Assembly: GCF_003334355.1 (NCBI RefSeq)
Contig: NZ_QOWP01000087.1
Source of the DNA: Escherichia coli
GTDB taxonomy: Bacteria; Pseudomonadota; Gammaproteobacteria; Enterobacterales; Enterobacteriaceae
Direction: 5' to 3' (one strand)
DNA length: 1,443 bases
Part shown: in pieces, positions 1 to 1,443 of the stretch
Numbering within the stretch: the first letter of the stretch is position 1
Layout of the letters: the number at the start of each line of letters is the position of its first letter
Program-made: the position numbers and the translations under genes
The notes under the pieces: model-generated
Told to the model about the DNA's origin: nothing
What the model saw: the letters and a program-made list of their open reading frames with translations, nothing else
Database searches by the model: none

Positions 1-31
1 TGTACTGACCCCAAAAAGTTGGACAGTTAAA
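1..31. repeat. Terminal inverted repeat at the orfB-proximal end (IRR in the element's own orientation)
   Basis: TGTACTGACCCCAAAAAGTTGGACAGTTAAA; shares the terminal TGTACTG and internal GTTGGAC blocks with the opposite end. The inner boundary is approximate. Confidence 0.8.
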
Positions 32-878
32 CACGAGGCATATAGGTCTGATTCCGATATTCAATTGGAGTCAGACCTTTTAATTTCAGGCTAATTCTTC
101 TGCTGTTGTAGTATTCAATATATTCCGTAACAGCATCCTTCAGTTCGCTTATATTACTGAACTCATCAAGATAAAAACACTCCGACTTTAAGGTTCCAAA
201 GAAACACTCCACCACAGCATTATCCAGACAATTGCCTTTTCTGGACATGCTTTGTTTAATACCATGTTCTTTAAGGATATTTTGATATCTTCTCATACGA
301 TACTGCCATCCCTGGTCAGAGTGCAGAACAGGATGCTCGTGAGGATTAAGCTTTTTGAATGCCTGATCGAGCATATTCTCAACCATGTTCATCACTGGTC
401 TTTCCGAAAGGCTGTAAGAAATAACTTCGTTGTTGAAGAGATCTATTACTGGAGACAAATACAGCTTGCGCCCATTGACTGCAAATTCAGTAACATCGGT
501 AACCCACTTCTCGTTTGGCCGCGTAGCCTTGAAATCTCTTTGGAGAACATTAGGGGCGGTTTGCCCTACCTCTCCTCTGTAAGAGCGGTATCGCTTGACC
601 TTAATCGCTGCTTTAAGTGAGAGGGTTCCCATCAGGCGCTGAACAGCTTTATGGTTAATCTGTTTCCCTTCTCGATGAAGAGACAGCGTTACCCTACGGT
701 ATCCGTATCGGCCTCTATTCTCGTGATAAATCTCACTAATACGCTTTTTAACGTCCGCATACTTGTCAGGCTTGCTGAGAGCCTTTAGATGATAATAAAA
801 CGTACTGCGCGGTATCTCCGCAGCCCTGAGAAGCTCATCAAGAGGATAAAACTGCCTTAGCTCGTTGAGTACTTTCAC
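27..878 (-). CDS. insK: IS3-family transposase OrfB (InsK-like): DDE/RNase H-fold integrase catalytic domain, 283 aa if initiated independently at GTG
   Basis: ORF track 27..878 (-). The first codon is GTG (878..876), overlapping the orfA TGA stop as GTGA. DDE triad located by hand: D128 (GAT, 497..495, motif WVTDVTEF), D188 (GAC, 317..315, motif HSDQGWQY), E224 (GAG, 209..207, motif [17 protein letters not shown]); D-to-E spacing 35 residues. The stop lies 26 nt from the window's left end. Confidence 0.93.
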
Positions 879-1396
879 TTTTTCGTGGGATGAGCTAAGG
901 CTTTCAGCTTTTTTAGATACATAAGCCGCGTTTCAAGAAATCGAACTTGCCTTTCAAGATCCTCAATGCGTCGGTCTTTTGACAGCTCCAATGCTGATGC
1001 CGCTTTTTCTGGATCAACTGATATTGCAATGTTTCTTTTGGTGCCAATCTTGAGCGCGCGTAAACCAGCTTCTCCGCGCTCTTCATAGACCTTCAGCCAC
1101 CTGGCTACAGAACCACTACCAGCAAGCATAAAGTGAGCAGCAGCCTGATTAAGGGACATGTGCTGCTCGATCACAGCTTTCACGACCTTAATACGCAACT
1201 CTGGATCAGCACTAACGCCTTTAGGTTTGGGAATTAAACCTTTTTCTCCATGTTTTTCATAGAGGGCAACCCATGTCCTGACCTGGGTTCGGGGGACACC
1301 AAAACGTGCCGAGATGATCCTGTAACCATCATCAGTTGTGAAGTAGTGATTCACGACTTCAAGGCGCTTTTCAAAAGGGTATTTTGGCTTTGACAT
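27..1396 (-). CDS. insJK: Predicted InsJK (OrfAB) transframe fusion transposase, made by programmed -1 ribosomal frameshifting at 914..908; roughly 455 aa
   Basis: OrfA zero-frame codons CTA AAA AAG place the heptamer A AAA AAG at 914..908. After a -1 slip the reading continues GCT GAA AGC CTT AGC TCA TCC CAC GAA AAA GTG AAA GTA..., with no stop, straight into the orfB frame (checked by hand). The length is an estimate from coordinates, not a verified translation. Confidence 0.8.
854..901 (-). promoter_or_regulatory. Frameshift-stimulating mRNA stem-loop: perfect 10-bp stem, 28-nt loop holding the orfA stop and orfB GTG start
   Basis: Plus 854..863 GCCTTAGCTC is the exact reverse complement of plus 892..901 GAGCTAAGGC. 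On the mRNA the 5' arm begins 6 nt (CTGAAA) after the heptamer, a typical spacer for -1 frameshift stimulators. The loop (891..864) contains the GTGA overlap at 878..875. Confidence 0.8.
875..1396 (-). CDS. insJ: IS3-family transposase OrfA (InsJ-like): DNA-binding HTH protein with C-terminal leucine zipper, 173 aa
   Basis: ORF track 875..1396 (-); ATG at 1396..1394, TGA at 877..875. HTH-like segment [24 protein letters not shown] (aa 25-48, about nt 1324..1253). Leucine heptad L147/L154/L161 (about nt 967..896). Begins 47 nt inside the element's right end in window coordinates, as expected for IS3-family orfA. Confidence 0.93.
   Translation of the reverse strand: MSKPKYPFEKRLEVVNHYFTTDDGYRIISARFGVPRTQVRTWVALYEKHGEKGLIPKPKGVSADPELRIKVVKAVIEQHMSLNQAAAHFMLAGSGSVARWLKVYEERGEAGLRALKIGTKRNIAISVDPEKAASALELSKDRRIEDLERQVRFLETRLMYLKKLKALAHPTKK
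908..914 (-). promoter_or_regulatory. Slippery heptamer A AAA AAG (X XXY YYZ) for programmed -1 frameshifting
   Basis: Plus strand 908..914 = CTTTTTT, so the minus strand reads A AAA AAG in the orfA zero frame (L161-K162-K163). Lies 31 nt upstream of the orfA stop. Confidence 0.85.
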
Positions 1397-1425
1397 ATTA
1401 GGGGCTATTCCATTTCATCGTCCAA
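1397..1425 (-). promoter_or_regulatory. Candidate orfA promoter inside IRL: -35-like TTGGAC (1425..1420); no convincing -10 or Shine-Dalgarno found
   Basis: Minus-strand sequence upstream of the orfA ATG: ...GTTGGACGATGAAATGGAATAGCCCCTAAT-ATG. TTGGAC matches the sigma70 -35 consensus at 5/6. The only hexamer at 17-bp spacing (CCTAAT) abuts the ATG, and the best purine run (GGAAT) is a weak SD. This is inference; IS3-family promoters are typically weak and partly within IRL. Confidence 0.3.
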
Positions 1426-1443
1426 CAAAATGGGTGCAGTACA
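1413..1443. repeat. Terminal inverted repeat at the orfA-proximal end (IRL in the element's own orientation)
   Basis: Reverse complement of the 3' end reads TGTACTGCACCCATTTTGTTGGACGATGAAA. Against window 1..31 (TGTACTGACCCCAAAAAGTTGGACAGTTAAA) it matches 18/24 over the first 24 nt and 22/31 over 31 nt. Conserved blocks are TGTACTG (terminal) and GTTGGAC (18-24 from the tip). The inner boundary is approximate. Confidence 0.8.

Follow-up and report, generated by a model that had tools for sequence, protein, structure and literature searches.

The insJ-insK junction of IS150 carries a heptamer and a stem-loop that almost certainly form its known programmed -1 ribosomal frameshift signal

The window, a stretch of 1,443 nt that was analysed over its whole length, carries two open reading frames that meet on its minus strand, and this raises the question of how a single transposase is made from them. 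A programmed -1 frameshift cassette had been predicted at the junction from the letters alone. We consider that the cassette is almost certainly the programmed -1 ribosomal frameshift signal of IS150. This signal is already known and has been understood since 1991, and our analysis adds no new biology to it. The anatomy of the cassette, the reading frames, the stability of the fold, its conservation and covariation, and the continuous profile match across the junction were computed in this study. The actual occurrence of the shift and its stimulation by the stem-loop are taken from the literature and from annotation.

The reverse complement of the window is 100% identical to NC_000913.3:3720633-3722075 of E. 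coli K-12 MG1655, where the annotation gives insertion sequence IS150, and the mRNA sense strand of the element is the minus strand of the window. E. coli has thousands of copies of IS150: among 5426 complete genomes of the species, 2865 have matches, at 6090 places in all. The features of the element at the level of genes are the following.

1..1443, minus strand: complete insertion sequence IS150, from its identity to the annotated K-12 IS150
1396..875, minus strand: orfA (insJ, InsA), 173 aa, 19.7 kDa, with two HTH_28 domains and the stop TGA at 877..875
878..27, minus strand: orfB (insK) as annotated, in the -1 frame relative to orfA
27..908, minus strand: -1-frame portion of the OrfAB transposase, entered at G908
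920..922, minus strand: ATG in the orfA frame, two codons 5' of the heptamer, candidate start of a shorter frameshifted product

The sequence of the window is that of the type element for the IS150 group, which belongs to the IS3 family. Its 1443 nt lie within the 1.2-1.5 kb of that family, and its ends (TGTACTGCACCCATTTTGTTGGAC... and ...GTCCAACTTTTTGGGGTCAGTACA) run from 5'-TG to CA-3' and form imperfect terminal inverted repeats, with TGTACTG opening both. As is also characteristic of the IS3 family, orfA and orfB are consecutive and overlapping, with orfB in -1 phase. A direct target duplication of 3-4 bp in the flanks was absent at the K-12 copy, the one genomic copy considered, where the flanks are GTA and AAC. 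The window itself comes without flanking sequence, and the missing duplication at K-12 bears on one copy and not on the identity of the element. In the RefSeq PGAP annotation both frames are one joined CDS, named 'IS3-like element IS150 family transposase; programmed frameshift'.

The two frames together encode one coherent protein. Translation of 1396..908 joined to 908..27 gives an OrfAB fusion of 456 aa and 53.1 kDa, and from the heptamer onward the -1 frame remains open and supplies the homologous remainder of the protein. The NF033516 profile (IS3 family transposase) scored 414.7 bits on the fusion (cutoff 160), with one stretch that covers residues 66-448 and the whole profile (1-369) and spans the junction at residues 163/164. 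Two HTH_28 domains, an HTH_21 domain and rve/rve_2/rve_3 were identified by Pfam on the fusion. The resulting architecture is HTH-HTH-HTH_21-rve, in which the HTH DNA-binding part lies in OrfA and the DDE (rve) catalytic core in OrfB. The transframe peptide that had been predicted is the very peptide that is encoded by the sequence on translation.

Between the two frames, the cassette consists of the following parts, given in the order of the mRNA.

908..914, minus strand: slippery heptamer A AAA AAG, in X_XXY_YYZ phase relative to orfA
902..907, minus strand: spacer CUGAAA, 6 nt
892..901, minus strand: 5' arm of the stimulatory hairpin, GCCTTAGCTC (GCCUUAGCUC), alignment columns 14-23
864..891, minus strand: loop of 28 nt, ATCCCACGAAAAAGTGAAAGTACTCAAC, which holds the orfA stop (877..875), the -1-frame GTG (878..876) and a second G_AAA_AAG (884..878)
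854..863, minus strand: 3' arm of the stimulatory hairpin, GAGCTAAGGC (GAGCUAAGGC), alignment columns 70-79, which encodes E-L-R-Q of OrfAB/OrfB

At the heptamer the orfA frame reads CTA AAA AAG and the -1 frame is the orfB frame; the heptamer is the sole A6R run in the whole element. The original prediction had placed the heptamer at 914..908, the CTGAAA spacer after it and a perfect 10-bp stem at 901..892/863..854, and a script check of the sequence showed that these positions were exact to the base. It had also placed the orfA stop and the orfB GTG inside the 28-nt loop, where TGA 877..875 and GTG 878..876 were indeed found. The two arms are exact reverse complements of each other, and the same pair was found independently by a repeat search. 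It is the sole perfect 10-bp inverted repeat in the element with a loop of 3-60 nt. In dinucleotide shuffles, the mean number of such repeats was 0.10 per 1443 nt, and the chance expectation for one that begins 4-10 nt past a given site is about 5e-4.

Folding of minus-strand 930..840, which had been named as a check on the prediction, favored the stem. RNAfold retained it in both the MFE and the centroid structures (-23.8 kcal/mol, z = -3.1), and none of 200 shuffles was as good as the real sequence. In a 195-nt context, all ten stem pairs had pair probabilities of at least 0.97, and the energy of the hairpin was -17.0 kcal/mol over 48 nt. For stimulators in the IS3 family, Sharma et al. 2014 asked for a start 4-10 nt 3' of the heptamer, an unfolding energy of at least 7.6 kcal/mol, an opening G-C pair and then at least three more pairs. 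The IS150 hairpin is within all four limits, with its 6-nt spacer, its G-C opening, its ten Watson-Crick pairs and its energy. A scan of Rfam at E <= 10 gave no match to a frameshift-element family, the IS1222_FSE and DnaX_FSE models included, and the IS150-type hairpin is without an Rfam family. The sole match at this threshold was a spurious one to mir-15, at 1181..1122.

A hairpin inside an operon might also work as an intrinsic transcription terminator or attenuator, and the sequence A-GUUUUAU directly after the stem would be in keeping with this. However, the hairpin was not flagged by the terminator scan, only four U's follow the stem, and the loop has 28 nt, compared to 3-8 nt in terminators. 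Moreover, the catalytic domain required for transposition lies wholly downstream of the hairpin. The intrinsic-terminator reading was rejected on the negative scan, and we put its probability at practically nil.

The role of the hairpin as a frameshift stimulator is consistent with its conservation. We compared 64 loci that encode OrfB relatives (54-99% aa identity) in Firmicutes, Beta- and Gammaproteobacteria and Actinobacteria. An in-phase A_AAA_AAR was present at the homologous place in 62 of the 64, and folding revealed a hairpin 5-7 nt 3' of the heptamer in nearly all relatives; in three Cupriavidus relatives the IS150-type stem was absent and another fold was found. Pairing was also assessed by explicit pair counting on a 62-sequence alignment, in which the outer helix of 11 pairs was 92.5% paired, compared to 24-48% in slid controls. 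For a 14-pair helix, the observed covariation score was reached by 0 of 500 shuffles, which as controls ignore phylogeny. RNAalifold returned an empty consensus structure for the full 62-sequence alignment and recovered the stem after removal of four divergent sequences. As each arm also codes for protein, the 5' one in two frames, their conservation is in part conservation at the protein level.

This leads to the question of whether the heptamer alone shifts, with the 10-bp repeat being a by-product of coding constraints (the ALA/SLS and ELRQ codons) that has no role at the RNA level. The amino acids encoded by both arms are conserved in relatives. In E. coli, with its single type of Lys-tRNA, A_AAA_AAG is by itself highly prone to shifting, and Sharma et al. 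saw no drop in variability at the synonymous sites of the IS150 cluster (PMC4066793). However, synonymous changes in the 3' arm follow the 5' arm. At the column pair 20/73, G-C occurs 27 times, G-U 18 times and A-U 14 times, and A-C never occurs, such that an A in column 20 is always accompanied by a U in column 73. C-G/U-A swaps are seen at columns 21/72 and 18/75; the C-G of IS150 stands where most relatives show U-A, and a Kluyvera relative has C-G in place of the U-A/U-G of others. In a Photorhabdus relative (L063) the arm sequence is wholly different and still pairs at the same position. The helix as a whole is paired at 92.5%, against at most 48% in slid registers, and a stem mutation is said, in the 1991 abstract, to have lowered frameshifting by about 80%. 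It is very unlikely, in our view, that the hairpin lacks a role at the RNA level.

Another way to reach the same fusion would be slippage of RNA polymerase on the A6 run, by which some of the mRNAs would gain one A and so code for OrfAB directly. The site of the shift consists of a homopolymer of A, and transcriptional slippage is used by some IS3-family and other IS elements, including a +1 case in IS1447 (PMC6211511). However, the relatives keep a phased heptamer together with a hairpin at a spacing appropriate for the ribosome, and the hairpin would be useless to a polymerase mechanism. The A run is only 6 long; about 8-9 or more identical bases are needed for efficient slippage of E. coli RNA polymerase. 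In the literature, IS150 is classed under ribosomal frameshifting stimulated by a stem-loop (PMC4066793). We consider slippage of the polymerase at this site extremely unlikely.

Ribosomal frameshifting at this site is documented. The insJ/IS150 cluster A_AAA_AAG_37 was rated '[true]' by Sharma et al. 2014 (PMC4066793), and the same paper, citing Vögele et al. 1991, presents IS150 as a proven case of stem-loop-stimulated -1 frameshifting. The synthesis of the IS150 transposase needs PRF (PMC8254509), and the frameshift efficiency is given as about 50% in PMC5771124, which cites Vögele. That one transcript would yield OrfA by termination and OrfAB by frameshifting, as had been predicted, agrees with the annotation and the literature for this exact sequence. 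The 1991 abstract reportedly gives the efficiency as about one third.

In the mechanism that almost certainly applies, ribosomes translating orfA arrive at CUA AAA AAG, where both Lys-tRNAs, that of the P site and that of the A site, can re-pair one base back, on AAA AAA. The stable hairpin 6 nt downstream (10 perfect bp, about -15 to -17 kcal/mol) would stand at the mRNA entry channel and resist unwinding, leading to a larger slipping fraction; we infer this mechanical action on the ribosome from general knowledge. The ribosomes that do not slip meet UGA 10 codons on and produce the 173-aa DNA-binding/regulatory OrfA (InsA), and those that slip read through the DDE (rve) catalytic domain and produce the 456-aa OrfAB transposase. 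It is thus the rate of slippage that sets the ratio of transposase to regulator and the transposition activity. In this way, the frameshift rate governs how often the very active IS150 moves and mutates E. coli genomes; in the long-term evolution lines, for example, IS150 is a major mutator.

It had also been suggested that OrfB alone might be initiated at the GTG (878..876), and this could happen independently or by termination-reinitiation. This GTG is in the orfB frame, lies in the loop of the hairpin and overlaps the orfA TGA as GUGA, which is a classic arrangement for coupling. It is kept in ISKpn8 (94% identical), and for the relative ISSau2 three products with the sizes of OrfAB, OrfB and OrfA have been seen. 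However, the GTG has no Shine-Dalgarno (anti-SD duplex +0.1 kcal/mol), and 44 relatives out of 62, among them the enterobacterial ones, have a cassette with no start codon in the -1 frame. In a 99%-identical Enterobacter copy there is GTC at this place, by which the GTG and the TGA are both lost. With neither a Shine-Dalgarno nor a conserved start codon, the GTG is a doubtful start for OrfB; this part of the original prediction was not supported, and we regard a separate OrfB of this origin as unlikely. That the GTG 'orfB start' is a non-conserved feature is one small addition of this study.

The 1991 abstract is said to state that 'expression of ins150B also involves frameshifting', and this would fit a start at the ATG 922..920 followed by the same -1 shift. 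The candidate product of this route is MYLKK/AESL..., with 298 aa and 35.2 kDa on translation. The ATG has a weak Shine-Dalgarno (-1.1 kcal/mol) and is replaced by GTG in a 99.2% variant and by ACG in ISKpn8. In the literature on IS150 we found no description of the origin of InsB. The loop further contains the second, shift-prone G_AAA_AAG immediately next to the UGA (884..875), and together with GUGA it might specify a further recoding or coupling event beyond those described. Such an event could take the form of a back-up -1 shift at a 'shifty stop', or of termination-reinitiation leading to OrfB. We give it only a slight chance; if true, it would tune the ratios of OrfA, OrfB and OrfAB beyond the published single-site model.

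The size of the loop had led to the further suggestion of a pseudoknot or additional internal pairing. On this reading, the stimulator would be a pseudoknot or a branched structure that involves the 28-nt loop, as in IS3 or IS911. The loop is large, two mini-helices are placed within it in the MFE structure, an inner helix is possible in many relatives with 46-nt loops, and a three-way junction is in use in IS911. However, when the loop was paired with the 100 nt that follow, the duplex energy (-9.5 kcal/mol) was equalled or bettered by 74% of shuffled loops, and in pairing with the upstream 60 nt by 46%. The mini-helices in the loop (3 bp and 2 bp) contribute only about 2 kcal/mol. There was no evidence for a pseudoknot or extra pairing, as complementarity of the loop to upstream and downstream sequence was no better than that of shuffled loops, and we consider such a structure quite improbable. 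Across the family, the inner helix of the relatives (columns 35-41 with 61-67) shows only 62% pairing, and the segment of 18 nt that contains its 5' strand is absent from IS150; as a family feature this helix was rejected.

Read as a heptamer followed by a simple stem-loop, the cassette is the same, base for base, as the ins150A/ins150B site of IS150 (Vögele, Schwartz, Welz, Schiltz & Rak 1991, Nucleic Acids Res 19:4377), with its A AAA AAG heptamer, its downstream stem-loop and its products InsA, InsAB and InsB. The entry of IS150 for SD and hairpin is N/Y (PMC4066793), and positions 934..915 contain neither GGAG nor AGGA, so there is no conserved upstream SD. IS911, of the IS3 group, shares A AAA AAG, the logic of orfA, orfB and a -1 fusion, and an RNA structure on the 3' side; unlike IS150, it has an upstream Shine-Dalgarno-like stimulator and a three-way-junction structure. 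The OrfB of IS911 starts at an AUU codon. In E. coli dnaX, as in IS150, the A AAA AAG heptamer is followed by a simple stem-loop a few nucleotides downstream, and the Rfam model of dnaX has no match in IS150. An upstream SD is also used in dnaX, and the shift there leads to early termination (the gamma subunit) and not to a protein-extending fusion.

Closer relatives resemble IS150 in more of these parts. ISKpn8 and other enterobacterial elements of the IS150 group have the same heptamer, the same 6-nt spacer, a homologous stem of 10-11 bp and a loop of 26-28 nt, with ISKpn8 differing by the ACG in place of the orfA-frame ATG 922. Enterobacterial relatives at 66-76% have U-A for the C-G of IS150, the orfA stop at +18 and a loop without GTG. 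In the long-loop hairpin architecture, the orfA stop is always within the loop. The IS150-group elements of Firmicutes and Betaproteobacteria (e.g. the ISSau2 group) have, like IS150, an in-phase A_AAA_AAR with a hairpin 5-7 nt downstream, and their arms (GCCUUAGUUCA / UGAAUUAAGGC) are homologous to those of IS150, with the orfA stop in the loop. Their loops are 18 nt longer (about 44-46 nt), sometimes with an inner helix, through a segment that is absent from IS150 and its closest relatives. As a further small addition of this study, the layout of heptamer, spacer and hairpin, with compensatory pair changes, is common to IS150-group elements of distant phyla.

The minus strand of the window was identical at every base to IS150 of Escherichia coli K-12 MG1655 (NC_000913.3:3720633-3722075; 1443 nt), where the annotation reads 'insertion sequence:IS150' with insJ (InsA) and insK (InsB). 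By megablast, 2865 of 5426 complete E. coli genomes carried matches to IS150, at 6090 places in total, and 3017 records were at least 99% identical to the window; the 81-nt cassette alone was found in 2833 genomes, almost always at 99% identity or above. In RefSeq, PGAP joins both ORFs into a single CDS, which is named 'IS3-like element IS150 family transposase' and labelled 'programmed frameshift' in its note. The K-12 copy is located in the hokA/mokA/sokA locus (L001), where it is flanked by GTA and AAC (L001:1131-1133 and 2577-2579), with no 3-bp direct target repeat at that copy.

The original prediction was a -1 frameshift cassette on the minus strand, and a base-by-base script check found all of its coordinates exact. 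The parts of the cassette (each checked by script) and the two reading frames are as follows:

914..908, minus strand: slippery heptamer AAAAAAG
907..902, minus strand: spacer CTGAAA
901..892, minus strand: 5' arm of the stem, GCCTTAGCTC
891..864, minus strand: loop, 28 nt
863..854, minus strand: 3' arm of the stem, GAGCTAAGGC
1396 (ATG) to 877..875 (TGA), minus strand: orfA, 173 aa
878..27, minus strand: orfB, in the -1 frame relative to orfA

Because orfA reads ...CTA AAA AAG CTG AAA GCC... at this site, the heptamer lies in the X_XXY_YYZ phase. A repeat search independently recovered the inverted repeat 901..892/863..854. IS150 contains no other perfect 10-bp inverted repeat, and no A6R run besides the heptamer; the chance expectation for such a repeat beginning 4-10 nt past a given site is about 5e-4.

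Folding of minus-strand 930..840 favoured the stem, as had been proposed: it was present in both the MFE and the centroid structures (RNAfold, -23.8 kcal/mol, z = -3.1), and none of 200 shuffles was as stable. Each of the ten pairs had a probability of 0.97-0.99 in a 195-nt context, and the isolated hairpin reached -17.0 kcal/mol, or -14.9 kcal/mol with the loop open. The suggestion that the loop might form a pseudoknot or additional pairs fared less well, since its duplexes were no better than those of shuffled loops. With the next 100 nt the loop paired at -9.5 kcal/mol at best, which 74% of shuffled loops equalled or bettered; for the upstream 60 nt this share was 46%. Two mini-helices within the loop contribute only about 2 kcal/mol. 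In most members of the IS150 group the loop is 18 nt (6 codons) longer than in IS150 and its close enterobacterial relatives. In an inner helix that sometimes forms in the longer-loop relatives, the 5' strand comes from the segment absent from IS150 (columns 31-48 of A1, our alignment of 62 cassettes). We rejected this helix as a family feature because family-wide pairing was only 62% and IS150 has no 5' strand for it. The stimulator is best described as a simple long-loop hairpin.

Using OrfB as a query, with one genome per species, we obtained 80 loci (54-99% amino-acid identity) from Enterobacterales, Burkholderiales, Bacillales, Clostridia and Streptomyces. At the homologous place, 62 of the 64 loci examined had A_AAA_AAG or A_AAA_AAA in phase, and the two exceptions were single-base changes, T AAA AAG (L032) and A CAA AAG (L070). 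In nearly all relatives, folded singly, a hairpin began 5-7 nt past the heptamer; its arms (GCCUUAGUUCA ... UGAAUUAAGGC) are homologous to the IS150 arms, and its loop contains the orfA stop. Transcriptional slippage as the source of the frame change is unlikely, because the run has only six A's and the conserved hairpin lies downstream at ribosome spacing. In A1, the 11-pair outer helix was 92.5% paired, against 24-48% for registers slid by 1-3 columns, counts to be read with the caveat that both arms are coding. For a 14-pair version, the covariation score was reached by none of 500 shuffles, a control that ignores phylogeny, and 47 cells had changed on both sides. Columns 20/73 were G-C in 27 sequences, G-U in 18, A-U in 14 and never A-C; columns 21/72 were C-G in IS150 and U-A in most relatives, among them enterobacterial ones (66-76% nucleotide identity) with an 11-bp stem; and columns 18/75 were C-G in a Kluyvera relative. 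The arms of a Photorhabdus element were unrelated in sequence, yet paired at the same place. RNAalifold returned no structure for the full 62-sequence alignment and recovered the stem only with four outliers removed. Three Cupriavidus copies (L007, L035 and L061) kept the A AAA AAG heptamer and lacked the family stem GCCUUAG.../...CUAAGGC; a different GC-rich hairpin directly followed the heptamer, and it looks as if the stimulator was replaced within the IS150 group. In Kluyvera sichuanensis (L070:1050-1260; 71% amino-acid identity), the heptamer was degraded and the hairpin retained, one U-A pair having become C-G by compensatory change. The element may be inactive here, or the A_AAG tetramer alone may be used.

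A -1 fusion at the heptamer gives OrfAB, a protein of 456 aa and 53.1 kDa (junction after ...MYLKK), with the Pfam domains HTH_28 (twice), HTH_21, rve and rve_2/rve_3. Against NCBIfam NF033516 (IS3 family transposase; cutoff 160) it scored 414.7 bits, and the alignment took in the entire profile (1-369). Since the match is one unbroken stretch of fusion residues 66-448, it spans the junction at residues 163/164.

Separate initiation of OrfB at GTG 878..876, also raised originally, was not supported. No Shine-Dalgarno sequence precedes this codon (anti-SD duplex +0.1 kcal/mol), and a -1-frame start codon within the cassette was absent in 44 of 62 relatives, enterobacterial ones included. In the 99% identical Enterobacter sp. 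Cy-643 copy (L002:1050-1260), GTC replaces GTG and abolishes both this start and the orfA TGA; orfA then extends to a TAA in the hairpin 3' arm, with heptamer and stem intact. The GUGA overlap could permit termination-reinitiation of OrfB. It shares bases with a second shift-prone motif, G_AAA_AAG, which abuts the orfA stop in the loop (ACG AAA AAG UGA; 884..875, minus strand), and ribosomes slipping by -1 on its AAG would likewise move into the orfB frame. According to an abstract from Vögele in 1991, ins150B expression reportedly involves frameshifting as well. An alternative InsB route that would fit this is a start at the orfA-frame ATG 922..920 (minus strand), two codons 5' of the heptamer (AUG UAU CUA AAA AAG), followed by the same -1 shift; translation gives a 298-aa, 35.2-kDa 'InsB-like' product. 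In ISKpn8 this ATG is replaced by ACG, and in a 99.2% Salmonella-plasmid variant by GTG, so neither OrfB route is conserved. We regard the origin of a separate OrfB as a minor sub-question.

A terminator scan gave no support for the hairpin as a terminator, and an Rfam scan of the window found no family covering the frameshift element. A mir-15 match at 1181..1122 (minus strand; 20.5 bits, gathering score 57.3) was judged spurious; the region is an 8-bp hairpin within orfA (GAGCAGCA ... UGCUGCUC, 18-nt loop). Within the 3' end of orfB, close to the right IS end, an inverted repeat at 44..78 (plus strand; 15 bp, 87% complementary, 5-nt loop) is followed by TTTAATTTCA. Its score is terminator-like for transcription that enters IS150 antisense to the transposase, and one such site does not exceed chance expectation.

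In the 1991 Vögele abstract, about one third of ribosomes are said to shift, an 83-bp segment to be sufficient and mutation of the stem-loop to cut shifting by about 80%. The insJ/IS150 cluster (A_AAA_AAG_37) has been classed as a true case, with a conserved hairpin and no conserved upstream Shine-Dalgarno (Sharma et al. 2014, PMC4066793), and IS150 as proven stem-loop-stimulated -1 frameshifting (PMC4066793, citing Vögele et al. 1991). Frameshifting is required for synthesis of the IS150 transposase (PMC8254509), with an efficiency of about 50% (PMC5771124). Annotation, literature, the fusion protein match and comparative conservation support the -1 programmed frameshift reading, and the cassette is the textbook IS150 -1 frameshift signal, already known.
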